This document shows positions 3,105-59,065 of a DNA stretch of 64,000 nucleotides, in pieces. Location: the NCBI GenBank assembly GCA_046351675.1, contig JAXLYB010000002.1, positions 128,001-192,000 of the forward strand, read 5' to 3'. Every line of letters starts with the position of its first letter. Within the stretch, counting starts at the first letter, position 1. The notes under the pieces were generated by a model. That model was not told the origin of the DNA. It saw only the letters and a list, made by a program, of their open reading frames with translations, and did no database searches. Source of the stretch: Myxococcaceae bacterium (GTDB lineage Bacteria > Myxococcota > Myxococcia > Myxococcales > Myxococcaceae). The translations under genes and the position numbers were made by a program.

Positions 3105-5969
3105 TCAGGGCAGCGACGGGTGCGTGGCGGTGATCCACACCGTGTAGAAAATCGTGCGCACGTCGCTGCCCCGGTAGTCACTCTTCGCGCGCAGGTAGAG
3201 GTACGTGCCGTCGAAGAAGTACTTCTCGGCCAGCGCGTCGTTCGCCACTTCGGTCACGCTCGACGCGGCGGTGAAGGTGCGAATGCCGGCGCCGTAGGGC
3301 GGGTAGTACGAATAGTACGAGCTGATCGAGAACGTGGTGCCCGCGGGGTAGGCGATCTTGAGCACCGAGCTGAGGCCCGGCGCAGCGCTCCACGGAACGA
3401 AGCTGATGCGGCGCGGCGTGAAGGCGTAGCCCGGGAACTCGAGGCGCACGGTCTCGCCCGCGGGCACTGGCAGCGCGGGGTAATCGGCCTGCAGCCCCAT
3501 GGCGAGAGCCGGGTAGCCAATCACCGGCGTGCCGGTCACCTCGCGGCGCAGCTGCGCGGCGGGGACGAGCGGCGTGCCCGTGCCGGTGCCGACGCCGGCG
3601 CCGATGTACGCGAGCCCGAAGTAGTTGCCGGTGCACAGCACGCCCGAGGTGGCGCTGGCCGGAGGCGCGGGCGAGCAGGTGTTGCCCTGCGTGTAGAACG
3701 GCAGGTTGTTCACCCACCAGCGGCCGGGGAAGCCGCCGGCACCATCGGCGTCGAGCACCGGCCCGTCGACGATGAACGAGGTGGGCGCGGGCAAGGTGAC
3801 GCGATCTCCGACCCTGACGTTGCTGAACTGGTTCGCGGAGAAGTCACCGATGCGCGTGTGGCCGAAGTACTCGAAGCCAAACATCGACCACATCGTGGCG
3901 TTGACGAAGCGCGAGCGACGAATCGCGCGCAGGTCGAAGCCCATCTGCATGACGGCGCTGTCGCCCAGGCTCTGCGCGAGCGGCGCGTTGAGGCGCGGCA
4001 CGAAGAGCCCGTCGTTGATCTGCAGGCCGGCGCGGGTGTTGTTGATCGCGAGCGACACGGTGTTCCACACCACCGGCGCGGCGAGCGTCAGGTCGGCCCC
4101 CGCGAGGAGGAAGCCGCTGCCCTGGCTCCCCACCACGCGAATGTTCTGGAACGTGGTGGCCAGCAGCACGCCCGTCGGCGCCGAGAGATGCGCGTCAGCC
4201 TGGGGTGCGTAGTCGGCGCTGTCGGCGACGCCGCTGGTCGTGCTGGCGATCGACTGGCCCATCTGCACGCCCATGCCGAGGGTGGCGTGCGCGAGGTTGT
4301 CATCGAAGCTGCCCAGCGCCCGGCGCCGCGGGCTCAGGTCGAGGCCCTGCGCGAGCCCCAGCGGCTGCTGCGCGAACGAGAGCCAGTACCCGCACCCGGC
4401 GACCTCGGTGGCCACGTTGCGACGCACGAAGTTGGCGGGGGCGCCCAGCACGAAGGCCGACGCGCCGCAGAGCCCCGGGGAACTCCCCGGGCCGGGCGTC
4501 ACGAACTCGGTGATGGTGGTCGGCGAGTTCGAGGGCCGGCGCACCGCGGCGACGAGGTTGTGCTCGAGCACGTTGTTCTCCTCGATGCCGCTGAGGAGCC
4601 ACACGGCATGGCCGGTGACGCGCGCGATGACGTTGTCGCGAACCACCGCGCCGTTCGCGAGGTGGATCACCACGCCGCGGTTCACGTCGGTGATGGCGTT
4701 GTTGCTGAGCTGCACTCCGGCGTCGGCCATGGCGCGCAGCTCGATGGCCGCGGTGCCGTCGCCGCCGTAGCCGCCGCGGTTGAGGCGCACGCCGTCGAGC
4801 ACGAGCACGCCGTTGCCCGTCGCCTGGATCGCCGCGCCCGTGCCCGCGTCCCACGTCGCGTCGCCCTCGCCTTCGATGACGATGTTGCGCGTGAGGTTGG
4901 CGATCTGCGCGCGGAGGTCGAGCGGCCAGCCCGCGTCGAACACGCCGTAGCGCGTGCCCACCAGCGGGCTCGAGACGGTGACCGACGCTCCGCTGGCGGC
5001 GGCGAGCTGCAGGAACTCGGTCCGCGAGCGGCCGCCGTCGGGCATGGTGTACGGCGAGGCGTCGTCGGCGTGGTGACCGCTGGGCGTGACGAGCACCTCG
5101 TCGCCCGCGCGCCAGTTGGTCGAGGTGCTGACGGTGAGCTGCGTCGTGCCGGCGTCGGCCGCTTCGAGCGTCGAGAAGATGGGCGTGGGGAAGACGCCGT
5201 GGAATTCGAGCCGGCCGTCTTGCTGCACGCGGATCATGCGGTCGCGCGAGTTGAGCGGGAAGTTGGAGCCGGTCAGCGTGATGCGCAGTGGAGAGGCGTG
5301 CGGCATCGCGGCAGTGCCGGCGACCCACGAGCCCCCGGAGAGATCGATGGCGCGCGCGCGAACGGTGAGCGCGGTGGGCGCCGTCGTGAGCTGACCGCGA
5401 ATCGTCAGGCGGCCGACGTCGACGTTCTCGTCGAGGAGGATGCGCTCGCTGGTGGCGATGGTGACGTCGAGGCCCCCTGCGTCGGGGCGCGAGGGCCAGC
5501 ACGACCAGCAGGTCTCGCCGGCAGGAGACAGGCACGAGGACGAGCAGAAGCCCGCGGGGCCGGCGTCGACTCCAGCGTCGAAGCCAGCGTCGGAGCCCGC
5601 ATCGAAGCCGCCCGCGTCGGAGATGCCCGCGTCAGAGCCGCCCGCATCGGAGCCGCCTGCATCGAGTTCGCCCGCGTCGAGTTCGCCCGCGTCGTTGGCG
5701 CCCGCGTCGTTGGCGCCCGCGTCAGCGTCGCCCGCGTCGATGCCGCCGGCGTCGGCGTCGCCCGCGTCGTTGGCACCCGCGTCGACTTCGCCCGCGTCCG
5801 CCTGGCCAGCGTCGAGACCTGCGTCGACGGAGCCCGCGTCGTCACCACCACCCGCATCGAGCACGTTCGCGCCGCTGTCGCTCGACGGCCCGCCGTCGTC
5901 AGAGCCCATGGGCGTGCCGCAGCCGAAGGCCCCCGCGACGAACACCAGCACCACGCACCGCTTGATCAT
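3105..5969 (-). CDS. Lipoprotein with DAG-repeat linker and right-handed parallel beta-helix (NosD/pectate-lyase-like) domain
   Basis: MIKRCVVLVFVAGAFGC lipobox. Roughly 30 copies of xDAG follow (DAGSVDAGLDAGQADAGEVDAG...). Later come beta-helix-type repeats (NNAITDVNRGVVIHLANGAVVRDNVIARVTGHAVWLLSGIEENNVLEHNLV). Confidence 0.6.
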   Translation of the reverse strand: MIKRCVVLVFVAGAFGCGTPMGSDDGGPSSDSGANVLDAGGGDDAGSVDAGLDAGQADAGEVDAGANDAGDADAGGIDAGDADAGANDAGANDAGELDAGELDAGGSDAGGSDAGISDAGGFDAGSDAGFDAGVDAGPAGFCSSSCLSPAGETCWSCWPSRPDAGGLDVTIATSERILLDENVDVGRLTIRGQLTTAPTALTVRARAIDLSGGSWVAGTAAMPHASPLRITLTGSNFPLNSRDRMIRVQQDGRLEFHGVFPTPIFSTLEAADAGTTQLTVSTSTNWRAGDEVLVTPSGHHADDASPYTMPDGGRSRTEFLQLAAASGASVTVSSPLVGTRYGVFDAGWPLDLRAQIANLTRNIVIEGEGDATWDAGTGAAIQATGNGVLVLDGVRLNRGGYGGDGTAAIELRAMADAGVQLSNNAITDVNRGVVIHLANGAVVRDNVIARVTGHAVWLLSGIEENNVLEHNLVAAVRRPSNSPTTITEFVTPGPGSSPGLCGASAFVLGAPANFVRRNVATEVAGCGYWLSFAQQPLGLAQGLDLSPRRRALGSFDDNLAHATLGMGVQMGQSIASTTSGVADSADYAPQADAHLSAPTGVLLATTFQNIRVVGSQGSGFLLAGADLTLAAPVVWNTVSLAINNTRAGLQINDGLFVPRLNAPLAQSLGDSAVMQMGFDLRAIRRSRFVNATMWSMFGFEYFGHTRIGDFSANQFSNVRVGDRVTLPAPTSFIVDGPVLDADGAGGFPGRWWVNNLPFYTQGNTCSPAPPASATSGVLCTGNYFGLAYIGAGVGTGTGTPLVPAAQLRREVTGTPVIGYPALAMGLQADYPALPVPAGETVRLEFPGYAFTPRRISFVPWSAAPGLSSVLKIAYPAGTTFSISSYYSYYPPYGAGIRTFTAASSVTEVANDALAEKYFFDGTYLYLRAKSDYRGSDVRTIFYTVWITATHPSLP

Positions 5970-6039: not shown

Positions 6040-8574
<2,535 letters not shown>

Positions 8575-10392: not shown

Positions 10393-12131
10393 TGATGCGC
10401 TTCCCCATGACTTCCTTGCGCGCGTCAGTCGTCGTCGTCGCTTCCGTCTTCGCCCTCACCTTCGTCAACTGCGGCCCCGACCAGCTCGACACCAGCGCCC
10501 GCACCCAGGCGCGCGCCCAGCGCTTCGACGGCCTCTCGCAGGGCGTGGTCATCAGCCAGGTGTACGGCGGCGGCAACAGCGGCACCGCCATCTACAACCG
10601 TGACTTCATCGAGCTCTTCAACCGCGGCACCGCGGCGGTGAACTTGAGCGGCTGGTCGGTGCAGTACGGCAGCGCCGCCGGCACGGGCGCCTGGTCGGTG
10701 ACGCCGCTGAGCGCGACGATGCTGCAGCCGGGCCAGTACCTCCTCGTCGGCGAGCAGAGCGGCACCTCGGGCGCGCCGCTGCCCGTCACCGTCGACGTGA
10801 GCGGCTCGACCCCGATGGCAAATGGCGCCGGCAAAGTCGCCCTCGTGAACAACGCCACCGCGCTCACCGGCGCGTGCCCGACGTCGGCGGCCATCGTCGA
10901 CCTCGTCGGCTACGGCACCGCGTCGAACTGCAAGGAAGGCATGTCGACGCCGAACACCAGCCAGACCACGGCCGCGCTCCGCAAGGTCTTCGGGTGCACC
11001 GAGACCGATAACAACGCGAACGACTTCTCCATCGGCACGCCGGCGCCGCGCGCCACGGGCTCGGCGCGGGTGAACTGCACGACCGTCGACGCGGGGGTCG
11101 ATGCCGGCTTCGACGCGGGTGTGGACGCCGGGGTCGACGCGGGGCTCGACGCGGGCCGGCCCGACGCGGGCGCTGACGCCGGAGTCGACGCGGGTGGCTT
11201 CGACGCGGCGTGCACCGTGTACGCGACGTGGCCGACCGCCTTCTCCGCCGGCTCGTACGACCCGGGCTTCGTGACCGCGTACGCCGACTTCTACACGCAG
11301 CGGCCCTCGCAGATGGACGGCGGCATGCTGCTGTCGATCGAGGCGTACTTCGGCAACGGCACGCTCATGCCTCCCACCACCGCGACGTTCGACTCGATGA
11401 CCGACTACGCGACGTGCGACGTCTGCCCGCGCGCGTATTCCGGCTGCCAGGCGAGCGGAGCGTGCGCCAAGAAGTACCTCGCGCAGTCGGGCTCGGTGAC
11501 GGTCACCACCGCGACCGAGAACGACGTCGCGGGCCAGTGGGTCGGCTCGGTCAGCAACGTCACCTTCCGCGAATGGAACTTCGGCAGTGACACCCTCGTG
11601 CCGAACGGCGCGTGCATCACCGTCACCTCGCTGGCCATCAACCTCTCGTGGGACGCGGGCAGCGGTCCGACCGGCGGTGGTGGTGGTGCGACGGGCGGCG
11701 GTGGCGGCACCACGGGCGGTGGCGGTGGCGCGACGGGCGGCGGTGGTGGCGCGACCGGCGGCGGCACGGGCGGCGGTACGACGGGCGGCGGCGGTGGCGC
11801 GACCGGCGGCGGCGCGGGCACCGGCGGTGGCGGTGGGCGTCCTCCGCGCATGGACGGCGGCACCGGCGGCGGCGCGGGCGGTGGCGGTGGCACGACTGAC
11901 GCGGGCAGCGACGCTGGCGCGACGGGTGGTGGCTCGGGCGCCGGTGGCGGCGGCGGCTCGGCGACGGGTGGTGGCAGCAGCGGCTTCGGCGGTGGCGGCG
12001 TGCTCGGTGGTGGCGCCGGGGGCGGCTCGACGAAGGGTGGCAGCGGCTGCGCGTGCAGCACGGGCGCGGAGCTGGTGGTGCCGCTCGCCTTCCTGCTGGG
12101 CCTGATCCGCTCGCGGCGCCGTCGCAACTGA
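10392..12131 (+). CDS. Lamin-tail-domain (LTD) lipoprotein with DAG repeats, Gly-rich low-complexity region and MYXO-CTERM tail
   Basis: MMRFPMTSLRASVVVVASVFALTFVNCG lipobox. LTD-like VISQVYGGGNSGTAIYNRDFIELFNRGTAAVNLSGWSVQYGSAAGTGAW...GKVALVN. Then (DAG)n, (GGGGATG)n, and the ending GSGCACSTGAELVVPLAFLLGLIRSRRRRN. Confidence 0.65.
   Translation: MMRFPMTSLRASVVVVASVFALTFVNCGPDQLDTSARTQARAQRFDGLSQGVVISQVYGGGNSGTAIYNRDFIELFNRGTAAVNLSGWSVQYGSAAGTGAWSVTPLSATMLQPGQYLLVGEQSGTSGAPLPVTVDVSGSTPMANGAGKVALVNNATALTGACPTSAAIVDLVGYGTASNCKEGMSTPNTSQTTAALRKVFGCTETDNNANDFSIGTPAPRATGSARVNCTTVDAGVDAGFDAGVDAGVDAGLDAGRPDAGADAGVDAGGFDAACTVYATWPTAFSAGSYDPGFVTAYADFYTQRPSQMDGGMLLSIEAYFGNGTLMPPTTATFDSMTDYATCDVCPRAYSGCQASGACAKKYLAQSGSVTVTTATENDVAGQWVGSVSNVTFREWNFGSDTLVPNGACITVTSLAINLSWDAGSGPTGGGGGATGGGGGTTGGGGGATGGGGGATGGGTGGGTTGGGGGATGGGAGTGGGGGRPPRMDGGTGGGAGGGGGTTDAGSDAGATGGGSGAGGGGGSATGGGSSGFGGGGVLGGGAGGGSTKGGSGCACSTGAELVVPLAFLLGLIRSRRRRN
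11685..11830 (+). repeat. Imperfect 21-bp tandem coding repeat (GGGGATG heptapeptide units) inside the LTD gene
   Basis: ggcggtggcggcgcgacgggc-like units repeated about six times. The same Gly codon tract continues, more degenerate, to about 12060. Confidence 0.5.
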
Positions 12132-13982: not shown

Positions 13983-14033
13983 CCCCTCACCCCGGCCCTC
14001 TCCCCGCATCCGCAGGGAGAGGGAGGCTCAGCT
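13983..14033. repeat. REP-like hairpin in a convergent gap
   Basis: ggcccctcaccccggccctctccccgcatccgcagggagagggaggctcag, with stem CCCTCTCCC/GGGAGAGGG. Confidence 0.5.
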
Positions 14034-21468: not shown

Positions 21469-22275
21469 ATGCGCGTCTCGACGTGGTTGCTCGCGGCGGT
21501 GGTGTGCACGGGCTGTCCTTCCATCGACAATCCGCTCCTCGGTGACGGTGGTGCGGGAGGTGGCGCGACCGGCGGTGGGACCACCGGCGGCGGCGCGGGC
21601 ACGGGTGGCGGCAGCGCGACGGGCGGCGGCGCGACGGGTGGCGGCGCGACGGGTGGTGGCGCGACCGGCAGCGGCACGGGCGGCGGTGGAGCCTGCGTGC
21701 CGAGCTGGCGCTGTACGCCGTGGCGCGAGGCCGACGGCGGCGCGGTGCGCACCTGTCTCGACGAGAACGCGTGCGGCGTGACGACGGGCCAACCGACCGA
21801 GGGGCCGCAGGCGATTCCGCAGCTCGACGCTCCGTATTACCGCTGCGTGGTGCAGCCGATTCTCGAGCGCTCGTGTGGCCAGCTGGCGTGTCACGGCACC
21901 GAGCAAGACCGCGCGCTCAAGCTCTTCGCGCGCGGCCGGCTGCGGCGCAACGAGACGGTGCCGCAGGTGTCGACGTGCCCGAACAACGGCCCGGTCAACC
22001 TGCAGATGGAGGGCAGCGCGACGGTGATGTGCGTCGGCTGGAGCCGCCTCACCGCGGGCGAGTGGTCGAGCAACCTCCTCTCGGCGCGGCTGCAGGGCGT
22101 GATGCTCAGCAACCCCGACGACAGCGAGCTGCTGCAGCAACCGCTCGAGACGAGCCCCTTCGCCCACGCAGGCATCAAGACGTGGAAGACGACGAGCGAC
22201 CCCGAGTACCAGGCGCTCAAGGCGTGGCTCGGCGGGGCGACCGCGAGCGCGTCGTGCGACGGAGGTGCCAATTGA
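21469..22275 (+). CDS. Lipoprotein with Gly/Thr linker and planctomycete-cytochrome-like CX4CHG motif
   Basis: MRVSTWLLAAVVCTGC lipobox. (GGGATG)n linker. VQPILERSCGQLACHGTEQDRALKLF resembles PSCyt-type heme-binding segments but with CX4CH spacing. Confidence 0.45.
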   Translation: MRVSTWLLAAVVCTGCPSIDNPLLGDGGAGGGATGGGTTGGGAGTGGGSATGGGATGGGATGGGATGSGTGGGGACVPSWRCTPWREADGGAVRTCLDENACGVTTGQPTEGPQAIPQLDAPYYRCVVQPILERSCGQLACHGTEQDRALKLFARGRLRRNETVPQVSTCPNNGPVNLQMEGSATVMCVGWSRLTAGEWSSNLLSARLQGVMLSNPDDSELLQQPLETSPFAHAGIKTWKTTSDPEYQALKAWLGGATASASCDGGAN

Positions 22276-25544: not shown

Positions 25545-25649
25545 GCCCCTCACCGCAGCCCTCTCCCCGCTGCGCAGGGAGAGGGAGTCCGCGAGTGACG
25601 ACAAGTCTCCCTCTCCCTGCACAGCGGGGAGAGGGTCGGGGTGAGGGGC
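25545..25649. repeat. 105-bp nested palindrome formed by two inverted REP-like units
   Basis: gcccctcaccgcagccctctccccgctgcgcagggagaggga ... tccctctccctgcacagcggggagagggtcggggtgaggggc. Each half is itself a hairpin. Confidence 0.6.
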
Positions 25650-38038: not shown

Positions 38039-38551
38039 ATGCCCAACCCCACCGCTACCTTCCAGACGTCGCTCGGCAACTTCACCGCCGAGCTGTTCCT
38101 CGACCAGATGCCGCTCACGGCGGGCAACTTCCTGAAGCTCGCGAAGAGCGGCTTCTACGACGGCCTGCACTTCCACCGCGTCATCAAGAACTTCATGGTG
38201 CAGTTCGGCTGCCCGAACTCGAAGGACCCGATGAGCCCCGAGGCGGGCATGGGCGGCCCTCCCGACGGCGACATCAAGGACGAGTTCACGGTGAAGCTGT
38301 CGAACGAGCCGATGACGCTCTCGATGGCGAACACCGGCCGGCCCAACAGCGGCGGCAGCCAGTTCTTCATCAACACCGTGCACAACGACTTCCTCGACTG
38401 GTTCACGCCGGGCCAGTCGCGGCACCCGGTCTTCGGGAAGGTCGTCTCGGGCCAGGACGTGGTGAAGAAGATCGAGACCACGCCGTGCGACGGCGACGAC
38501 CGGCCGCGCACGCCGGTGAAGGTCATCAAGGTGACCGTCGCGGGCGCGTGA
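38039..38551 (+). CDS. Cyclophilin-type peptidyl-prolyl cis-trans isomerase
   Basis: [15 protein letters not shown]...[18 protein letters not shown]...[14 protein letters not shown]. Confidence 0.9.
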
Positions 38552-39030
38552 AGCCCTCGCCGCTCGTGGTGGTGGTGTTCGGCCTGCCGGGCGCGGGGAA
38601 GACCTTCGTCGGTCGCCAGCTCGCTGCGCAGCGCGGAGCCCACTTCCACGACGGTGACGCCGACCTGCCGGCTGACATGCGCGCGGCCATCGACGCCGCA
38701 CAGCCGGTGACCGATGAGATGCGCGAGCGCTTCGTCGACGCACAGGTGGCGCGGGTGAAGTCGTTGCTCGGCGCCCACGCGACCGTGGTGCTCGCGCAGA
38801 CGTTTCCGAAGCAGGTGCACCGTGAGCGCTTCGCGCGGGAGTTTCCACGCGTGGAGTGGGTGCTCGTCACCGCGCCCGACGCGCTGCGGGCGGAGAGAAT
38901 TGCGCACCGGTCGCACCAGCCGCTCGATGCGGCGTATGCGAAGCGCATGGCGTCGTTCTTCGACGCGCCGCCTGCGGGGACGAGGGTGGTGGTGAATGAT
39001 GGCGTGAGGCCGCTGCCGACCTCGGGCTGA
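38548..39030 (+). CDS. Gluconokinase/IdnK-family P-loop kinase (AAA_33-like)
   Basis: GTGA overlap with the cyclophilin stop. Walker [21 protein letters not shown]...TDEMRERF parallels GntK F.DGDDLHP...DEDR. Confidence 0.6.
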
Positions 39031-39342
39031 GCGTGCTCGGACGCGGCGCACCGGGCCTTGAAGGGTGATGGGCGGCGCGAGGTCCGGGTGAAGTGCCGAG
39101 CAGCGGGCGTGCCTCTCGGCGTCGGGCGTCGCGTGACTCGTTGATGCACGCGTCGTGATGATCACGCGTGCACGTGTTCAGACTTTTCGTAGTGGGGACT
39201 GCGAATTCTCCGAACACGTGCCCATCACGAAGCCTGCAGACGCGAGTCACGTGCTCGAAGTGAGAGGCACGCCCGTCTCGCGGCAGTGCGTCGACCCACC
39301 AGCCCACTGCCACCCCGAGAAGGCCAGCGCACGAGCCACCGA

Positions 39343-39511
39343 CGATGCGCGTGACGTTCGCGGCGGCTGGCGCTGGCAGCGTCACACGCACGGTGCTCTC
39401 TCGATGCGCGTGACGTTCCCGGCGGCCAGCGCTGGCAACGTCACACGCACGGTGCTCTCGATGCGCGTGACGTTCCCGGCGGCCAGCGCTGGCAACGTCA
39501 CACGCACGGCG
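39343..39511. repeat. Three tandem ~57-bp direct repeats, each containing an inverted repeat (GTGACGTT...AACGTCAC)
   Basis: Units begin at 39343, 39403 and 39460 (gatgcgcgtgacgttcccggcggccagcgctggcaacgtcacacgcacggtgctctc). Copies 2 and 3 are identical for ~55 bp and copy 1 differs at 3 positions. The array abuts the stop codon of the 1058-aa gene. Confidence 0.6.
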
Positions 39512-42500
39512 TCACAGCTCGACTTCCGTCACCCGCCCATGCTCATCGGCGATGCCCAGCCGATCGTGCGCCAGCTCCCGCAGCGTGACCTGCCGCGTCC
39601 CCGCCAGCCGCGCCACCAACCGCATCGGCGCTTCGCTCGCCAGCGACGCAATCAGTGACGGCGACCAATCGACCACCGACACCTCGGTGCTCCCGTTCAC
39701 CACCCGCGCCAGCACCAACCCCGCATCCATCGGGAGCTGCTGCCACCCACTCGCGTCCAACACCCGCTCGCGCACCGTCGTCGCACCCGAGCGCGGCAGG
39801 ATCTTCAACGTCAGGGTCAGCCGCGCGTCGTCGCGCACCTTGAACGACCACGTCACGAGATCACCGCTGCGCCACCACGCGAAGTCCGACGGGTCGAGCC
39901 GTCGCTCGAGGGTCTGCGCGCCGACCTCGAACACGATGCGCCGCGACTCGTTCTGCGCCAGCTCGGTGCCGAGCGCCGAGACGAACCGCCCCTGGGCGTC
40001 GAGGTCACGCGCGTTGAACTGCGGCACGCGCCACCACTCCATCGCGGCGGGCGTCGCCGGGTCGAGCAGCACCAGCGAGCGTTCCATGCCGACCGCCCAG
40101 CACAGGCCGTCGAAGCGCCGCGAGAACGCGTCGATGCCCGCCTGGAACCAGCTGTCGATGCCGAAGTGCAGCGGATCGAGCCGCCACACCCGCGTGAGCG
40201 CGCCGTCGAGCGAGAGCACCAGCACGCGCGACCCGAGCGGCCCCACCACCAGCGCATCGGCCTTCACGAGGTGGTGCTTGAGCGTCTGCCCCGAGGGAGA
40301 CACCACCTTGAGCCCCGCCGCCCCGAGCGCCAGCACGCGACGGCCCTTCGGCAGCGGCGCGACGTCGAACACCCGCAGCTGCGACGCGATGGGCGCGGGC
40401 ACTTCGAGCGGCTGCCGCTCTCGCGCAGGCCGCGGCGGCGCGTTCGGCACTGCGTCGGCGACGAGCACGCGGTCGTTGGTCGACTTGAGCACTTCCTGCA
40501 CGAGGTATCGGTCGACGGGCCGGCCATCGCTCGCGTCGCGCATCAGCTCGCGCCACAGGTCGCGGTGAATCGGCCCCGTCGCCGCGGGCGCGTGCTTGAG
40601 CAACGACTGCGCGGCGAGCGGCAGGAGCGCGCGGTCTTGCTCGATGACCTCCCGCAGGCGCACGCGCGCGTCGTCGAGGTGCTCGGGGTTCCGACGCAGG
40701 TCGGTCGCGAGCGCGGTCACCGCCGCGGCGCCGCCGACCTCCAGCGCCTGGTCGCGCCAGCTCGCCCATTGCTCAGGCGCCTCGCCCAGCGGCGCGGTGG
40801 CGAGCAGCGCCTCCGCCCAGCGCTGGCGCTGCGCGAGGTAGTCGCCCCAGATGACGCGCAGCCGCGTGGCGACCTCGTCGGACCGGGGCGTCAGCGCGGT
40901 GATCAACGCCTCGAAGTCGTGGCTCCCGCGCACCAGCCGCAGCGCCTCGTCGGTGCGGCCAGCGAGCAGCCACAACCGAATGCGCTCGGTGTCGGACAGG
41001 TGCTGCGCGGTGGCGACCTGCGCGGCGAGCTCAAAGCGGCCGTGCTTTTCGAGCAGCGCCACCGCGGCCGTCGCGTCGTGGAGCAGCTTCGCGAGCACGA
41101 ACGCCGCCTCGTCGATCTGCCCGCGCGCGATGAGCGCGTCGGCGGTCTCGCGGTAGAACTTCCGCATCGCCTCGAACTCGCCGTCGGGCACGATGACCGC
41201 GGCGCCACCACGCGTCGGCGGCGTCAGCAGCGAGAGCGAATCGCGGCGAAACGGCGTGATGCCCGTGGTGGTGCGCACCGGACCAACGCCCCCGTTCGCG
41301 AGCGGCACCGCGCGGCGGAGCGCTTCACCGAGGTTTTCCTCGAAGGCGCGCCGCAGCTCGTCGAAGTAGCGGTCGGGCCGCTGCGCCGGGGGACGCGAAG
41401 CGCTCGCGGTGTCGCCGCCACGGAACCAACGGCCGAGCGACGCGAAGAACCCACCTTCGCCCGCCGCGACGGGAGGAACGGGCGGAACGATTCCCCCCGA
41501 GCCACGCGCGCCGTTGCCGCGGAACCAGCGACTGAAGGACGAGAGGAAGCCGCGTCCGCCCGGAGTGACTGGAGGGGCAGGAGGAACGACGGGAGGCAAA
41601 GCGAGACGCGAGGTCCGCTGCGTGCGCCGTGTGCCGTCGCCGCCGAGCCACGCGCGGAGACGTGACCAGAGTCCCGGACTGCGCGGTCGCGCGTCGTCTT
41701 CAACCGGCCGGCGAGCGAGCGGGCCGGGCGGTGGAGGTTGTTCGTCAGCTGCGGGCGGACGCGGCGCGCCGCCAAGCCACGCGCGGAGACGCGACCAGAG
41801 TCCTGGGCCGCGCGGTGGCGCGTCGTCTTCAACCGGTGCGAGCGGGCGCTGTTCGTCAGCTGCGGGCGGCGGGAGCGCGGTCGGCTGTTGCGCACCGCCG
41901 AGCCACGCACGGAGACGCGACCAGAGACCCGCGTCACGAGGTGGTGGAGCCGCGGGTGGGTCTTGCTCTTCGACGGGCGGAGGGAGCGCGGGAGGTGCTC
42001 CACCACCGAGCCACGCGCGAAGCCGAGCCCACATTCCCGGGGGAGTAGGAGACTGATCAGCACCATCGACACCCGGCTCGACCGGCAGCGCGTTCTGCTC
42101 GGGGCCGCGACGATTCGCCCACCACTGCGCGAGCCGCTCGCGCCACGTCGGCGGGGGCGGCGGTTCCGGCACCGGAGGCGGCGCTGGCGGACGACCCTGC
42201 GCGGCGAGTTGCTCGAGCAGCGGCGCGAAGAGTTCGTCGAGTGACTGACGCGCTGGCGCGGGCGCGGGTGGCGCGACGGGGCGAGGCGGGGGCTCGAGCG
42301 TCGCGACCTGCTCCACCCGTGGCGTGGGCAGTGAGAGCAGTGTCGAGGGGTGCACCGCGAGCGTCGCTGAGAACGTGACGGTGCGGAGAGTTCCCGCAAT
42401 GAGATCGACCAACGCGTCGCGTGGCACGTCGGCGAGCGCCGCCGGATCGAGCGCCGTCGTCAGCCAGCGCCCGTCGAACTGCACCACGGGCAGGCCCGGC

Positions 42501-42688
42501 GCTTCCCGCGAATCGACGCGCCGCCCGCGCAGGCCGACGAGGTACCAGCGCGTCCCGTCGCGGAAGAGGCGCGCGCCGTCGGTCCACGAGGCGAGTACGC
42601 GCTCGACCACGCGTGCGCGGCCCACCAGCGCCTCGTCGAACACGAAGCCGCTTGCGTGCACCGAGCCGAAGAAGGGCTGCGCGCTCAT
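39512..42688 (-). CDS. 1058-aa hypothetical protein with Pro-rich tandem peptide repeats (GLWSRLRAWLGG motif x5) and helical plus beta-rich C-terminal domains
   Basis: Last gene of the MoxR operon. Four to five repeats of ~40 aa (PPRDAGLWSRLRAWLGGAQQP...). High GC3 throughout. Alternative-frame ORFs inside it were discarded. Confidence 0.6.
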   Translation of the reverse strand: MSAQPFFGSVHASGFVFDEALVGRARVVERVLASWTDGARLFRDGTRWYLVGLRGRRVDSREAPGLPVVQFDGRWLTTALDPAALADVPRDALVDLIAGTLRTVTFSATLAVHPSTLLSLPTPRVEQVATLEPPPRPVAPPAPAPARQSLDELFAPLLEQLAAQGRPPAPPPVPEPPPPPTWRERLAQWWANRRGPEQNALPVEPGVDGADQSPTPPGMWARLRAWLGGGAPPALPPPVEEQDPPAAPPPRDAGLWSRLRAWLGGAQQPTALPPPAADEQRPLAPVEDDAPPRGPGLWSRLRAWLGGAPRPPAADEQPPPPGPLARRPVEDDARPRSPGLWSRLRAWLGGDGTRRTQRTSRLALPPVVPPAPPVTPGGRGFLSSFSRWFRGNGARGSGGIVPPVPPVAAGEGGFFASLGRWFRGGDTASASRPPAQRPDRYFDELRRAFEENLGEALRRAVPLANGGVGPVRTTTGITPFRRDSLSLLTPPTRGGAAVIVPDGEFEAMRKFYRETADALIARGQIDEAAFVLAKLLHDATAAVALLEKHGRFELAAQVATAQHLSDTERIRLWLLAGRTDEALRLVRGSHDFEALITALTPRSDEVATRLRVIWGDYLAQRQRWAEALLATAPLGEAPEQWASWRDQALEVGGAAAVTALATDLRRNPEHLDDARVRLREVIEQDRALLPLAAQSLLKHAPAATGPIHRDLWRELMRDASDGRPVDRYLVQEVLKSTNDRVLVADAVPNAPPRPARERQPLEVPAPIASQLRVFDVAPLPKGRRVLALGAAGLKVVSPSGQTLKHHLVKADALVVGPLGSRVLVLSLDGALTRVWRLDPLHFGIDSWFQAGIDAFSRRFDGLCWAVGMERSLVLLDPATPAAMEWWRVPQFNARDLDAQGRFVSALGTELAQNESRRIVFEVGAQTLERRLDPSDFAWWRSGDLVTWSFKVRDDARLTLTLKILPRSGATTVRERVLDASGWQQLPMDAGLVLARVVNGSTEVSVVDWSPSLIASLASEAPMRLVARLAGTRQVTLRELAHDRLGIADEHGRVTEVEL
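41640..42050 (-). repeat. ~120-bp tandem coding repeats (3-4 copies) underlying the GLWSRLRAWLGG peptide repeats
   Basis: gagccacgcgcggagacgcgaccagagtcc recurs near 41645, 41768, 41886 and 42010. Confidence 0.5.
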
Positions 42689-42712
42689 GTCGGCAGCCTC
42701 GTGGCGACGGTT

Positions 42713-42864
42713 TTCTTCTCACCCCGACCCTCTGCTCCTCGGGAGGAGAGGGAGACGCGCGCGTAGGCCGGCAGCCTCCTGCCGATGGCTTTCTCCTCAC
42801 CCCGACCCTCTCCTCCTCGCGAGGAGAGGGGGCCGCAACCCCGAGCCTCTCCTCCGCTCATGGC
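42713..42864. repeat. Two and a half tandem REP-like units in the 169-bp gap between the 589-aa and 1058-aa genes
   Basis: cggcagcctc..ggttttcttctcaccccgaccctctgctcctcgggaggagagggagac, then ccggcagcctcctgccgatggctttctcctcaccccgaccctctcctcctcgcgaggagagggggcc, then a partial ccccgagcctctcctcc. Confidence 0.6.
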
Positions 42865-44627
42865 AGCTCCTTCCCCGCATCGCGCACGTGGAGCCTCAGC
42901 ACGGTCTCCTTGCGCGTACGGCTGTGCACGCCAATCTCACCGTTCACATCGCGCCACGCGAAGACCTCGCCGTGCACCCATGCCGTCGCGACCTCGATCT
43001 GCGCGCGCGCCCGGGCCTCGATGATCCACTGCGGCGCGGTCTGCCCGGTGTCGAGCGAGCGAATCGTGCGCCCGTCCTTGCCGACCGCGATCACCGTCAC
43101 GCCATCGTTCTCACTGTTGGGCCACAGCGTCGCGCACACCGCGACGGGACTCGCGCCGTCGAAGACCTGCGCCGGCAGCGTGCGCACCCGCACCGCCTGG
43201 TGGCCGGCCAGCATCTCGACGCGGCCCGGGTAGGTGCACATCGCCAGCACGCCCAGCCGATTCGACCACCCGAGCACCGCGTGCAGCGGCAGCTCGTTCA
43301 AGTAGAGCTGGCGCACGAGGCCGCGCTTCACCACCTGGCTGCCGCCGAGTCCGAGCCCGACCACGCCATCACCCAGCTGCGTCGCCCAGTGCAGCGAGCC
43401 GTCGACCGCGCGGAGCGAGCGCGCGTCGTAGAACTTCCGCTCGAACACCCAGCCCGCCTCGAGCGGCCACGCCGAGAGGAAGAGCTGATCAGCCGTCGGC
43501 ATCGGCGCCGACGCCGAGACGCGCCCGCCGAGGTGCCCATCCCAATCGCTCGCGAAGACCGCGCCGTCTTGCCACGCGAGCGTCACGCCCCTCGCGCGCT
43601 TGCTCGACCACGCCGCCGAGACGAGGCGCGCACCCGCGGGGAGGTTCGCGACCGACGGCCAGCCGAAGCCCGCGCGCGCCGTGTTGCGCAGCGGAATCGC
43701 CACCACCGAACCCGATTCGGTGCGCGCGAGCAGCCGGTGGCCGTCTTGCGAGAAGGCGAGCTCGGTGTGGGGCGCGAGCGGAATCGGCGAGCCCTGCTTT
43801 CGGCGGTGCGTCGGGTTGACCTTCGGGCGCGTCCACCCGAACGGGTCGCGCAGCACGCGCAGCTGCGTCGCCTCGTCGGGCAGCGCGAGCTCGAGCGTGC
43901 GCGGTCGCGCCTGGCGCGCGGTCGTCAGCGACAGCTTCAGCGCCCCGGTCGTGTCGGCGTCGTCGACCACCAGCATGCTCCAGCGCCGCGGCGTCACGAG
44001 CGGGGCGAGGTGCGCGCTGCCCACCACCAGCACGTCGCGCTCGACGCCGTCGTCGACCCAGGCGTCACGCCAGCGATCGAGCAGCGCCGCGGTCGGCACG
44101 TGCGGGTTGCGCGAGTCGAGCCACGCCTGCACCGACGCCTGCGTGAGCGCCTCGTGCGGCGGGAGCTCGAACATCCACAGCGGCGCCCAGCGCAGCCGCA
44201 CGCCCGCCTCTCGCGCGCGACGGGCGAAGGCGACGAGGGCCGCGAGCTGCGCGATGCGCGGTGCGCCCTGCTGTGCGGGGCCGGTGTCGAGCAGCAGCCA
44301 TGCTTCGAGCGCGACCTTCGGGGAACGGCGTTCGAGCTCGACGAAGAGCTGCTCGCCCGAGGTCGCGCGGCGAATGAACTCGTCGGGGGCCTCGAGCTGG
44401 AGCGCCCACTCCGACGCGAGCAGGCGTTCCCACGGGCCGCGGCGGCCGAGGCCCGAGTAGCCGTGCGGGTCGTCGGCGTGCGTCTCGTCGCGCACCTTGA
44501 GCGGACCGAGGATGTTCTGGAGCCGCTCGGCGAGCGGGGCGAGCGCGCCGAGCAGCTCGCGCGCGAACAGGCGGAGCTCGGGTTCCCACGCGTCGAGGTG
44601 CCGTGGCCAGGGCGCGAGTTCACTCAT
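42858..44627 (-). CDS. 589-aa hypothetical protein (third gene of MoxR operon), beta-rich C-terminal half
   Basis: ATG at 44627 (MSELAPWPRHLDAW). The first ~110 codons of ORF 42858-44969 are Arg-rich, include the REP element, and were discarded. Confidence 0.5.
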   Translation of the reverse strand: MSELAPWPRHLDAWEPELRLFARELLGALAPLAERLQNILGPLKVRDETHADDPHGYSGLGRRGPWERLLASEWALQLEAPDEFIRRATSGEQLFVELERRSPKVALEAWLLLDTGPAQQGAPRIAQLAALVAFARRAREAGVRLRWAPLWMFELPPHEALTQASVQAWLDSRNPHVPTAALLDRWRDAWVDDGVERDVLVVGSAHLAPLVTPRRWSMLVVDDADTTGALKLSLTTARQARPRTLELALPDEATQLRVLRDPFGWTRPKVNPTHRRKQGSPIPLAPHTELAFSQDGHRLLARTESGSVVAIPLRNTARAGFGWPSVANLPAGARLVSAAWSSKRARGVTLAWQDGAVFASDWDGHLGGRVSASAPMPTADQLFLSAWPLEAGWVFERKFYDARSLRAVDGSLHWATQLGDGVVGLGLGGSQVVKRGLVRQLYLNELPLHAVLGWSNRLGVLAMCTYPGRVEMLAGHQAVRVRTLPAQVFDGASPVAVCATLWPNSENDGVTVIAVGKDGRTIRSLDTGQTAPQWIIEARARAQIEVATAWVHGEVFAWRDVNGEIGVHSRTRKETVLRLHVRDAGKELP

Positions 44628-45129
44628 GGGCAACTCCCTCTCCTCCCGAGGAGCTCCCGAGGAGGAGAGGGTTGGGGTGAGGAGGAGAACCCCTCGGCGC
44701 CAGGGAGTTCCTGGCCCACGCCTCGAGACGAATCGGATCGATCGGCCCCGCTCTGCCGACCGGCAACAGCACCGGCACCCCACCGACGTCTCGCACCACG
44801 CACGGCCAGTCGACACCGGGCTGCGACGACCGCCACGCATGCTCGAGCCACGACGCCGGCACCGACAGCGCGCCCCGCATCGCCTGCTGCGCGGTGGGCA
44901 CCAGCAGCCACGGCGCGTCCGGCTCCCGACCGAAGTACTGCGCGCCGTCGACCCACGGCAGCTCGTCACCCGTCAAGGCGAGCACGTTCCCCGCGACGAC
45001 GCCGCGCAGCTGCGCGAGCCGCGGACTCCCGGCGAGCCGGCGCGCCAACGCCCGGGCCGCCTCGCCCTCGACCACCACGTATTCCGGCTGGAGCGTGGGC
45101 CAACGCGGCGCCCAGTGCAGCTCGTCCAT
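44620..45129 (-). CDS. 170-aa hypothetical protein (second gene of MoxR operon); its C-terminus reads through the REP element
   Basis: MDELHWAPRWPTL... A GGAG Shine-Dalgarno lies 8 bp upstream. Start is 23 bp after the MoxR stop. The C-terminal residues PRGSPPHPNPLLLGSSSGGEG are encoded by the hairpin repeat, so the true stop is uncertain. Confidence 0.35.
   Translation of the reverse strand: MDELHWAPRWPTLQPEYVVVEGEAARALARRLAGSPRLAQLRGVVAGNVLALTGDELPWVDGAQYFGREPDAPWLLVPTAQQAMRGALSVPASWLEHAWRSSQPGVDWPCVVRDVGGVPVLLPVGRAGPIDPIRLEAWARNSLAPRGSPPHPNPLLLGSSSGGEGVAHE
44631..44695. repeat. REP-like unit in inverted orientation at the junction between the small ORF and the 589-aa gene
   Basis: ccctctcctcccgaggagctcccgaggaggagagggttggggtgaggaggagaa is the reverse complement of the 42790 unit. 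Confidence 0.55.
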
Positions 45130-45151
45130 CACGACTCCACGGTGAGGCTGA

Positions 45152-46252
45152 TCAGGCCAGCGCGTCGACGATGAGCGCGCGGCGACTCTTGAGGCTGTCG
45201 GGCAACGTGTCGCTCGAGAACGCCGCGTCGATGTCGCGCGCCACGCCCTCGAGCTGCAGGCGCCACCGGTCGTCGCGCACCTCGGCGACGAGCAACTGCG
45301 CCGCGCGGTCATCGAGCAGCTTCGCGCGCGCCGCGCGTCCCTGGGTCGCCTCGAGCGCCGCGCCCGGCGTCGCGTCGTTGGCCGCCCCTTCGAGCTGCTG
45401 CTTGAGCACCGTGCGCGCCAACGCCTGCTGCTCCGCGGTCGGCAACGCGAAGACCAGCGGCCAGAGGTCCTCGGCCTCGGCACGGGAACGCCCCGCGAGG
45501 GTCGCCGCGGCGGCGATGAGGCGCTGCACGCGCACCAGGCGCCGGTCGGTCAGCTCCACGCCGGCCTGCCGCAGCAACCGCACGCACTGCGCGTAGAGCG
45601 GGCGAATGCCCGAGAGATCAGCGCCGTCGGCCGCGCGCGCGAGCACGTCGAGGTCGTCGATCGACGCCACCGCCACCGGCCGCTTCGGCCGCGCGCCGAG
45701 CAGGTCTTCGAGCAGCGCGTCGGGGAGCGGCTCGACGAAGGTGCGCAGCAAGAAGCGGTCGGCGAAGGCCGCGAGCGCGTCTTCGGTGGGCAGCGCGTTC
45801 GACGCGCCGACGCACACCCGCAGCGGCACCTGGAGTTGCGACTTGCCGCGCCGAAACGTGCGCTCGTTGAGCAACCCCAGCAGCGTGTTGAGGATCGCCG
45901 ACGAGCCGAGGAACACCTCGTCGAGGAAGGCGATGTCGGCCTCGGGCAGCATGCCGCCGACCTCGGTCTCCACCACGCCCTCGCGCAGCTTGCGCAGGTC
46001 GACCGGCCCGAAGATTTCAGACGGCTCGGTGAAGCGGCCGAGCAGGTACTCGAAGTACCGCGCCTCGAAGACCTGCGCCGCGCGCCGCGCCGCGAGCGAC
46101 TTGGCGGTGCCGGGCGGGCCGATGATCAGCAGGTGCTCCTCGGCGACCGCGGCCAGCAACACCAACTCGACCAGCACGTCGCGCGCGACGAGCCCGTCCC
46201 TCGCGGCCGCCAACGCCTGACGCACCCGACCCAGTGCCGTGCTCTCCGTCAT
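45152..46252 (-). CDS. MoxR/RavA-like AAA+ ATPase
   Basis: Walker A IIGPPGTAKS, Walker B IAFLDEV, sensor/Arg-finger region LNERTF...ASNALP. Start MTESTALGRV at 46252. The 41 upstream codons of the ORF are probably not coding. Confidence 0.75.
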   Translation of the reverse strand: MTESTALGRVRQALAAARDGLVARDVLVELVLLAAVAEEHLLIIGPPGTAKSLAARRAAQVFEARYFEYLLGRFTEPSEIFGPVDLRKLREGVVETEVGGMLPEADIAFLDEVFLGSSAILNTLLGLLNERTFRRGKSQLQVPLRVCVGASNALPTEDALAAFADRFLLRTFVEPLPDALLEDLLGARPKRPVAVASIDDLDVLARAADGADLSGIRPLYAQCVRLLRQAGVELTDRRLVRVQRLIAAAATLAGRSRAEAEDLWPLVFALPTAEQQALARTVLKQQLEGAANDATPGAALEATQGRAARAKLLDDRAAQLLVAEVRDDRWRLQLEGVARDIDAAFSSDTLPDSLKSRRALIVDALA

Positions 46253-46437
46253 GGTCGCCGGACTGTACTCGCGCCGCCCCCCTGACCACTGCCGTTCACA
46301 CTCTGGAGCGCGAGAGCACCACTGCGCTGTCGTGATCCCGGGCGACACCCGCGGGTGACGAAGGAAGATTCGAGTCAATCTGTGATGTTGGCGTCGCTGG
46401 CGTCGCGGCGTCAGCGTTGCAACACCGCGTCACTCCG

Positions 46438-55332: not shown

Positions 55333-55378
55333 CCAGCTCCCTCTCCCTGCTGCGCAGGGAGAGGGAGATTTCAGATGA
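55331..55378. repeat. REP-like hairpin in a convergent gap
   Basis: ccctctccctgctgcgcagggagaggga. Confidence 0.5.
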
Positions 55379-57513: not shown

Positions 57514-59065
57514 GCGCGCGGTACGAGTAGACGACGTCGTCGTCGAACTGCAGCCGGAAGGTCTCCGCGCCGCCGTCGAGCGCGAACTCCAGCGCGTCGG
57601 GCGTACCGGGACCGTTCGCGCCGAGGCCGACGAAGAGCGTGTCACCGCGCAGCTGCGCCGAGCCCATCGCGAACGCGAACCACCCGAGGTCGAGCTCGCT
57701 GAACGACTGCACCACGCCCGCGTCGGGGTCGAGCTGGTACGTCACCACGCGGCTGCGGCCCACGGCGTTGCCGTTGTCGAAGACCTGCAGACTGTCGGGG
57801 CCAATCACCGACGTGAAGTGCTGGTGCGAGGTGCGCTGCGCCGGTGGAGTGCCGAACGAGTCGCCCTCTCCACCGAGCCTCCAGACGATCTCACCGGTGT
57901 GGCGGTCGAGCTTCAGCACCGCGTCGAGGTGGCGGAACGACGCCACGAAGTTCTCGTCGTTCGGGTCGATGACCACGGAGTTCAGGTGTGCGTAGTCGGC
58001 CGCGGCGGACGCGTTGCCGAACGCGTTGCCGTCGGTGCTCAGCGCGTACAGCTCGGGGTGCTCGGTGCTGTCCCACTCGAAGACGACCTGGCCGGCGTCG
58101 ACCTCCTGGATCAGCGCCGCGGTCACGAAGGCGCCGCCCACTGCGGGGCTCAGCGACGCGGGCACGTTGGTGGCGTACTCGTCGTAGTAGGCGACCAGCA
58201 CGCAGTGGTCGTCCGACAGCAGAATGAAGTCGTGCGCGTCAGCGGTGACCGACGTGCGCGCGGCCGTGGGGAGCACCTGGAACGTCCTCAGCGGCGCGAA
58301 GTGCTCGTCGAGCACCTGCACCACGCCAGCCGACCAATAGGAGTAGCGCACCGCGCCGCCCGGCAGCACGTGCCGCTGGAAGTCGAGCGCGATGGAGCTC
58401 ACGCGCCGGTAGAAGAGCACCTGCCCCTGCGCGTCGAGCGCGACGACGAAGTGCCCGTAGCGCGTCGTGTACCACTCGAAGGGCGTGAGCAAGACGAGGC
58501 CTGGCGAAGGGTCGCGGCTGGTGACGGTGAACGAGGGCCAGTCCGCTGGGCGCAGGCGCACGCGGTACTCGGTGCTGCCGACGGTGACGACGATTGGCGC
58601 GGGGTTTCCGTCGAGCGGGCCCGGAGTCAACGCGGCGGGCTGTCCGTCGCCGAGCACCAGCGTGCCGACGCGCGCGTCCGAAGCGCCGCTCACCGTGACC
58701 ACCGTCGGCGCGAGCGCGGAGTACTCACTGAGCTCGTACTCGGTGATGGCTGGGTCGAACGCGGGCACCAGCTGGCCCGGGCTGAACGACATCGTCAGCA
58801 CCGCCGCGCCGGCATCGACGACCTGCACACCCGCGTCGACCTGCACACCCGCGTCGACCTCCACACCCGCGTCGAGCTCCGCGCCGGCGTCGACGGCTGC
58901 CACCCCGGCGTCCACCTCCACGCCCGCGTCGACGGCGACCGTGAAGTCACCCGCGTCGACGCCCTCGGTCTCGTCGGGCTCGGTGGGCACGACGGACACC
59001 GGCTTCCACGCCGCTTCGCACCCGCAGAAGAAGACGACCGCCAGGGCCAGGACCGAGTGGTTCAC
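57503..59065 (-). CDS. Arylsulfotransferase (ASST)-like beta-propeller lipoprotein with DAG-repeat linker
   Basis: MNHSVLALAVVFFCGC lipobox. (xDAG)n. A Cadherin-like segment FSPGQLVPAFDPAITEYEL. The propeller region is compatible with the ASST family (from memory). Confidence 0.5.
   Translation of the reverse strand: MNHSVLALAVVFFCGCEAAWKPVSVVPTEPDETEGVDAGDFTVAVDAGVEVDAGVAAVDAGAELDAGVEVDAGVQVDAGVQVVDAGAAVLTMSFSPGQLVPAFDPAITEYELSEYSALAPTVVTVSGASDARVGTLVLGDGQPAALTPGPLDGNPAPIVVTVGSTEYRVRLRPADWPSFTVTSRDPSPGLVLLTPFEWYTTRYGHFVVALDAQGQVLFYRRVSSIALDFQRHVLPGGAVRYSYWSAGVVQVLDEHFAPLRTFQVLPTAARTSVTADAHDFILLSDDHCVLVAYYDEYATNVPASLSPAVGGAFVTAALIQEVDAGQVVFEWDSTEHPELYALSTDGNAFGNASAAADYAHLNSVVIDPNDENFVASFRHLDAVLKLDRHTGEIVWRLGGEGDSFGTPPAQRTSHQHFTSVIGPDSLQVFDNGNAVGRSRVVTYQLDPDAGVVQSFSELDLGWFAFAMGSAQLRGDTLFVGLGANGPGTPDALEFALDGGAETFRLQFDDDVVYSYRALKY

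Follow-up and report, generated by a model that had tools for sequence, protein, structure and literature searches.

The window analysed here, a 64-kb stretch of DNA with a GC content of ~70%, contains an array of three tandem repeats in a convergent gap of 481 bp between a bpX6-domain gene and an AAA_33-type small kinase gene (Table 1). An earlier note had placed the array immediately 3' of a 1058-aa gene and inside a convergent gap, and both statements hold: the long gene lies on the minus strand with its TGA stop codon next to the array, and the plus-strand kinase gene ends on the far side of the gap, with a cyclophilin gene before it. The stop codon of bpX6 is the native one, since the C-terminus of the protein (…DEHGRVTEVEL, directly before the stop) aligns with that of an orthologue (…DEHGRVTEVSL, likewise directly before the stop). 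Orthologous loci share the gene order bpMoxR-bpX5-(unnamed)-bpX6, so that the array lies 3' of the final gene in an operon of the MoxR-vWA-beta-propeller ternary system, which spans 39512-46378 on the minus strand. A literature search for the name of this system returned only unrelated chemistry papers.

The bpX6 open reading frame, at 1058 aa, is longer than its homologues, which have 884-896 aa. Its start may have been set wrongly, or the protein may carry insertions. M16 peptidases are also found among the neighbours of the array, and gyrB lies within the window, which makes the context of the array chromosomal. The presence of gyrB also means that the replication origin is possibly not far away.

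Table 1. Positions of the array, its flanking genes and the other hairpins in the 64-kb window.
Feature	Position	Strand	Remarks
Repeat unit 1 (59 bp, diverged)	39339-39397		87% identity to reference unit; stem-loop core 39346-39390
Repeat unit 2 (57 bp)	39398-39454		Stem-loop core 39405-39449; apical palindrome GCCAGCGCTGGC at 39425-39436
Repeat unit 3 (57 bp)	39455-39511		Stem-loop core 39462-39506
Long imperfect hairpin	39081-39300		Arms ~95 nt (39094-39193 / 39198-39285), 76-83% complementary
bpX6-domain gene (1058-aa ORF)	39512-42688	-	Pfam PF19922 bpX6, E=4.4e-12; TGA stop 39514-39512
bpMoxR AAA+ gene	45152-46378	-	PF20030, E = 1.7e-78
AAA_33-type small kinase gene	38548-39030	+	Pfam match; gene calls on same-strain contig L002
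Cyclophilin gene	38039-38551	+	Pfam match; precedes kinase gene
gyrB (DNA_gyraseB, Toprim, GyrB_insert domains)	6040-8547	-	Domain matches
Dispersed REP-like hairpin family CCCTCTCCC(N9-10)GGGAGAGGG	13996-14023, 25559-25585, 25609-25635, 55339-55365		

Anatomy and folding of the array

TRF reports the array at 39343-39509 with a period of 57, 2.9 copies, 94% matches and a score of 290, the top score for any tandem repeat in the window. A repeat search sets the units in register at 39339-39393, 39398-39452 and 39455-39509, so that successive units start 59 and 57 bp apart. The three head-to-tail units of about 57 bp described in the earlier note are thus borne out by both methods, far above chance. 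Units 2 and 3 are 100% identical over 55 nt, in agreement with the ~55 bp stated before. Unit 1 had been said to differ from them at 3 positions, but it departs from them further than this, with 4 core substitutions (C>G, CA>TG, A>G), a 2-nt CT indel in the linker (TGCTCTCTC vs TGCTCTC) and 3 mismatches at its diverged left edge. When a 41-nt core was searched against the window with up to 3 mismatches allowed, units 2 and 3 were the sole matches, with 0.00 expected from shuffled sequence.

An inverted-repeat search found arms of 20 nt, TGCGCGTGACGTTCCCGGCG / CGCTGGCAACGTCACACGCA, that are 85% complementary and enclose a 5-nt loop. The arm sequences that had been given for all three copies are correct for units 2 and 3 and incorrect for unit 1, whose right arm reads AGCGTCAC, not AACGTCAC. 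At the apex of units 2 and 3 is a perfect 12-bp palindrome, GCCAGCGCTGGC, which is lost in unit 1. The stem-loop core of unit 3 ends 5 nt from the bpX6 stop codon, and this unit is the first hairpin on the strand of the operon.

Consistent with the inverted repeat inside each of them, all of the units fold into a stem-loop of ~45 nt with a free energy of about -30 to -33 kcal/mol, and the earlier statement that each copy can form a hairpin stands. Compared with all 50-nt windows of the 64 kb, this lies ~3.5 sd under their mean and puts the units among the ten strongest structures there. In units 2 and 3 neither strand folds better than the other (-32.7 kcal/mol for unit 2 on either), while unit 1 reaches -30.1 kcal/mol on the plus strand and -24.9 kcal/mol on the minus strand. 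For the array as a whole the folding z is -5.6 (plus strand) and -4.7 (minus strand). Two of the core substitutions in unit 1 fall in the loop, one breaks a pair, and the fourth leaves U·G when the plus strand folds but C·A when the minus strand does. It is this last substitution that gives unit 1 its more stable fold on the plus strand, opposite to the strand of the operon. A C·A/U·G position common to all units favours the minus strand, and the wobble signals therefore conflict.

The array is non-coding. The coding signature (GC3 ~0.9, GC2 ~0.5) is absent from every frame of the gap, in which the best GC3 is 0.76, against 0.92 in bpX6 and 0.88 in the kinase gene. A reading of the array as a coding repeat (57 bp being 19 codons) was rejected: the 59-bp first spacing breaks the frame, the GC3/GC2 pattern is missing, and the orthologue ends at the same residue. 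A stop-codon read-through or SECIS-like reading of the bpX6 TGA falls with it.

The frame of bpX6 stays open beyond its TGA for ~215 codons, across the whole gap (38867-39511, minus strand). We judge this open frame to be an accident of high GC.

Other hairpins and tandem repeats in the window

The lower-GC segment that the earlier note had seen in the gap is real (GC 0.57 at 39150-39249) and proves to be the apex of a second structure, a hairpin of ~200 nt that begins 51-64 nt past the stop codon of the kinase gene. Its minimum free energy is -129.5 kcal/mol on the plus strand (z -8.4) and -119.6 kcal/mol on the minus strand (z -7.4). The lower-GC apex itself, at ~39170-39221, holds three CACGTG palindromes and one TGATGATCA palindrome. 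This long hairpin could be a bidirectional terminator, the remnant of a foldback element or MITE, or a structured RNA. No homologue of it was found in plasmids or phages, and kinship with the 57-bp unit was rejected on a local alignment score of 16 against a shuffle mean of 16.5.

A family of REP-like hairpins, CCCTCTCCC…GGGAGAGGG, is dispersed through the window in four copies at three loci, where 0.00 would be expected by chance. The copies lie 7-22 nt past stop codons at the ends of three transcription units; two of them form a tandem pair with a spacing of 50 bp, and some are flanked by CCCCTCACCCC / GGGGTGAGGGG. The family and the 57-bp unit are alike in standing past stop codons and in occurring in tandem, but their sequences are unrelated, and the family is dispersed whereas the unit is confined to one locus. 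In a descriptive comparison across the window, the 70 nt downstream of genes that precede a large gap tend to outfold the ends of genes within operons. The 70 nt downstream of bpX6 are among the strongest, at -35.7 kcal/mol.

Further GC-rich tandem repeats occur at 5591-5841 (15/45 bp), 11084-11211 (12/24), 11668-12047 (21/33), 21559-21689 (15/30 bp) and 58799-58936 (18/39). Since their periods are multiples of three and at least some of them lie within long ORFs, these are presumably low-complexity regions of proteins.

Occurrence elsewhere and copy number

No second copy of the 57-bp unit was found in the window by core searches, motif searches or blastn-short, and with the unit, the long hairpin and the entire gap as queries the last of these methods returned exact matches of at most 12 nt in the window outside the gap. 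For scans of larger collections we used a stem pattern that matches all three units, GCGTGACGTTN{14,26}CGTCACACGC. It matched 14 times in 185,579 species-representative genomes, 20 times in the JGI metagenome contigs and once in the viral contigs. These counts apply outside the source organism's own genome, as the metagenome scan missed a same-strain JGI contig known to carry the array. All of the matches are single, come from scattered taxa and have unrelated loops and flanks, which is chance level. The idea that the 57-mer might be a common dispersed repeat, raised in the earlier note, gains no support from the 64-kb window or from the public collections scanned.

Comparison of the gap with plasmid and phage collections under the distant setting of blastn gave no match. 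At the gathering score, Rfam 15 has 0 matches in the whole window; relaxing the threshold to E<=10 for the gap brought up only chance matches of the miRNA-precursor type, far under their thresholds. No tRNA or tmRNA genes were found.

One different palindrome surfaced in these scans, only through an outer stem that fits the search pattern. This sequence, GTGACGTTGTGCCCCGAAC…GGGGCACAACGTCAC, is common to an Actinomycetota MAG (L006, at 2774-2809 and 3796-3831, ~1 kb apart) and a Propionicimonas MAG (L007, at 5723-5758), and could represent an operator in these genomes or one of their repeated hairpins.

The locus is also present in two further assemblies of the strain. The Logan contig L001 matches the window at 100% identity and terminates 30 nt into the last unit (L001 3310-3339). 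The JGI contig L002 differs by 8 SNPs in 9.8 kb, with 0 in the gap, and carries a run of 138 N (2653-2790) between unit 1 and the last unit. Base for base, L002 reproduces unit 1 with the left junction and the last unit with the right junction, and the right junction of unit 3 is independently present in both contigs. Since both junctions are reproduced in L002, at least two distinct tandem units are independently confirmed. Only the window's own assembly shows exactly three units, and the copy number is uncertain; the true number may exceed three, since the scaffold gap of 138 N is longer than the 61 nt that it replaces. Array copy number in MAGs is in general not to be trusted where an array at an operon end interrupts short-read assemblies as this one does, and the practical use of the finding is as a warning that such arrays fragment MAGs.

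An assembly artefact, in which the repeat or its copy number was created by short-read mis-assembly, is extremely unlikely on this evidence. The breaks of both other same-strain assemblies inside the array are what such an explanation would draw on, but the independent reproduction of the first and last units with their junctions makes at least two units real, and the length of the 138-N gap suggests a copy number not under three.

Outside the strain, homologues of bpX6 are at most 59% identical and those of the kinase at most 66%; the best named relative of the kinase is a protein of an Archangium MAG with 54% identity, which makes a myxobacterial source likely. Neither the array nor a conserved gap was found at the related loci L003, L004, L039, L040 and L041. 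The next gene abuts bpX6 in L003 and L041, L004 has a spacer of 221 bp that holds no similar hairpin repeat, and in the partly syntenic L040 the kinase gene is followed by a NUDIX gene. Since orthologous operons occur without it, the array is not a conserved component of the MoxR-vWA-beta-propeller system. The operon is missing from the equivalent site in L040, which indicates that its placement at the present site is lineage-specific.

Interpretation and comparison with known elements

We propose, at an even balance of confidence, that a 3'-end hairpin has been amplified in tandem at this one locus, and that it acts as a terminator, as an RNA-stabilising barrier, or as both. Most likely the array is an ordinary stem-loop of a gene end that has been duplicated locally, and not a new kind of element. 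Position supports this, with the first hairpin 5 nt past the native last stop codon of an operon that faces a convergent neighbour, and the strong stem-loops at other transcription-unit ends in the window lend further support to the same reading. If transcription of the operon runs on through the array, each transcribed unit would form a stable hairpin, and the stack beyond the stop codon would constitute a barrier at the 3' end. Stacked hairpins could pause or terminate RNA polymerase, possibly with Rho or in the manner of termination without a U-tract, and could also block 3'-to-5' exonucleases. Termination without a U-tract is often reported for high-GC bacteria. Such a barrier would define and stabilise the end of the operon mRNA and curb read-through into the convergent cyclophilin and kinase genes, and the long hairpin would serve the plus-strand genes likewise. 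A single hairpin would suffice for these roles, and triplication thus has no demonstrated benefit.

The units could have arisen by replication slippage or unequal exchange, with an older duplication that separated unit 1 from the rest (~8% core divergence) and then a very recent one that gave units 2 and 3. Copy number is probably close to neutral, and may be variable. From the near-identity of the copies the earlier note had concluded that there was either recent expansion or active maintenance; recent duplication or homogenisation agrees with what we see, but active maintenance is not needed, because slippage or unequal exchange accounts for identical copies. The same note had offered three candidate functions, a stacked terminator, a structured small RNA and an iterated protein-binding site. 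The stacked terminator, or 3'-end hairpin, is the best supported of these and partly so: the position at the operon end and the strong stem-loops at other transcription-unit ends speak for it, while the missing U-tract does not, and the support is positional. The other two candidates gained no support and are weighed below.

A quite different account, possible though unlikely, is that the array is a functionless minisatellite, an intergenic palindrome amplified by slippage that has no role in RNA or protein binding and lies near a stop codon incidentally. Its restriction to one strain, the identical internal copies, the slip of a CT dinucleotide in the linker and the decay of unit 1, with the apical palindrome lost and one stem pair weakened, all agree with this, as do the missing U-tract and promoter and the tendency of assemblers to break here as at any VNTR. 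However, a hairpin of -33 kcal/mol placed 5 nt past the last stop codon would affect the 3' end of the RNA if transcribed, and few local structures in the 64 kb are stronger than the unit. The account may also overlap with the amplified 3'-end hairpin, in that the hairpin could be functional and its copy number neutral. It is improbable that the array is a local cluster of a dispersed mobile hairpin family of the REP/BIME or MITE type with many copies elsewhere in the genome. An extragenic, GC-rich, imperfect palindrome at the 3' end of a gene in a convergent gap sits where REPs typically do (PMC3733652), and the copy search within the source genome covered the 64-kb window. Against such a family stand the absence of a second copy in that window and the chance-level matches in genomes, JGI metagenomes and viral contigs (14, 20 and 1), the head-to-tail units with a 45-nt palindrome and no unpaired tag, and the different sequence of the genome's evident dispersed hairpin family.

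Still less probable is a series of protein-binding sites such as sopC, a parS cluster, iterons or an operator array, in which the inverted repeat of each unit would be presented to a dimeric DNA-binding protein. Its architecture is sopC-like and the 12-bp palindrome of units 2 and 3 is perfect, but that palindrome is destroyed in unit 1, the 8-bp arms have 19 bp between them, an unusual distance for a dimeric site, and a period of 57 bp, or ~5.4 helical turns, would set successive sites on different faces of the helix. Furthermore, no ParA/ParB, Rep or transcription-factor gene was seen among the scanned neighbours, the locus is chromosomal, no further copy of the motifs was found in the window, and a convergent gap offers no promoter to regulate. 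We consider it very unlikely that the gap gives rise to a small structured RNA with repeated modules, or to tandem small-RNA genes. Strong structure on both strands and the slightly better compatibility of the unit 1 substitutions with plus-strand folding could be read in this way; transcription might begin, for example, in the lower-GC patch at the tip of the long hairpin, which on the plus strand precedes the array by ~150 nt. This reading is opposed by the lack of a promoter-like site on either strand, of any Rfam family even at E<=10 and of homologues in our searches; 57 bp is moreover too short for a promoter, an RNA and a terminator, and the strand preference comes from one substitution.

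It is likewise very doubtful that the array is a copy-variable 'dial' in the 3'-UTR, peculiar to the operon of this lineage, that sets bpX6 dosage, or a set of binding sites for the system's own proteins. If the dial existed, gain and loss of units by slippage would tune termination, mRNA stability and the dosage of the bpX6 effector within a population. The failure of both assemblies inside the array is compatible with a heterogeneous copy number, but neither the dial nor the version with own-protein binding has positive support. As an amplified 3'-end hairpin, the array is one more locally amplified stem-loop in a high-GC, probably myxobacterial, uncultured genome and matters little. It would become more interesting if copy number varies and alters expression of the adjacent conflict-system operon, or if the unit belongs to a dispersed family of head-to-tail hairpins outside the REP definition.

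Several classes of known elements resemble the array in part. It is not a CRISPR array, as had been stated before: the units abut at spacings (59 and 57 bp) equal to the unit length, which leaves no unique spacers. A template or variable repeat of a DGR was also rejected, as the copies do not differ specifically at adenines, the repeats are not part of the ORF and no reverse transcriptase was seen. Integron attC sites, the '59-base elements', come closer, being similar in length to the 57-59 bp of the units, with an inverted repeat that is imperfect and includes a bulged base, and being placed directly 3' of an ORF. An attC carries R'' (RYYYAAC) at its 5' side and R' (GTTRRRY) at its 3' side, with cassette ORFs between sites and intI nearby. 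In the array the core motifs run GTT…AAC on both strands, which is the reversed order, there is no ORF between units, and no integrase was found among the scanned window genes. The sopC site of the F plasmid and similar centromere-like sites consist of direct repeats that each contain an inverted repeat, and in this architecture the array agrees with sopC, parS clusters and iterons. Membership in that group was rejected on the lack of a par or rep gene among the scanned neighbours and the missing palindrome of unit 1.

Intergenic minisatellites, or VNTRs, have near-identical units of tens of bp with a diverged edge copy and identical internal copies, and short-read assemblies collapse or break at them, as they break at this array. 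VNTR loci are used in MLVA typing and are defined by copy-number polymorphism; the array is known from one strain or population, and its likeness to a VNTR lies in the make-up of its units and in the assembly breaks. With intrinsic terminators the array shares a stable GC-rich stem-loop directly past the last stop codon of an operon. It differs from tandem intrinsic terminators in that its hairpins are sequence repeats of each other and not independent, and in that no U-tract follows any stem on either strand; past the stems, the minus strand reads AUCGAGAGCACC and the plus strand CGGUGCUCUC. A scan for consensus terminators found 0 sites, and the array is therefore not a canonical intrinsic terminator, which would combine the hairpin with a U-tract.

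REPs are high-copy, dispersed palindromes of 20-40 bp with an unpaired GTAG or CGTC tag; they are typically extragenic, at the 3' ends of genes and in convergent gaps, their dimers are head-to-head or tail-to-tail with head-to-tail arrangements negligible, and the GTAG-tagged families are associated with RAYT transposases (PMC3733652). The REP clusters and BIMEs of Enterobacteria and Pseudomonas are like the array in being extragenic, GC-rich, imperfect palindromes that cluster in 3' untranslated or convergent regions. The array differs in its unit of ~45 nt within a 57-bp period, in being untagged and strictly head-to-tail, and in having been seen at one locus. Its stems are flanked by …CTCTCGA/TGCG… and …CGCA/CGGTG…; GTAG is absent, CGTC lies inside the paired stem, and no transposase family, which would include the IS200/IS605-type TnpA of RAYT genes, was found among the scanned window proteins. 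Membership in the REP/BIME class was rejected on the missing tag, on the lack of an inverted arrangement and on a palindrome longer than 20-40 bp. The array is thus a locally amplified extragenic stem-loop or minisatellite, and does not belong to the REP, attC, CRISPR or iteron families.

For the function that we propose, the closest documented case is a hairpin cluster in E. coli. REP325 is a partially Rho-dependent terminator and also stabilises the upstream mRNA, and where REPs lie between two convergent genes, both of these tend to be expressed more highly (bioRxiv 10.64898/2026.03.23.713779). Attenuation of read-through and protection of the upstream mRNA are documented there, and we regard REP325 as a functional analogue of the amplified 3'-end hairpin at the end of the bpX6 operon.
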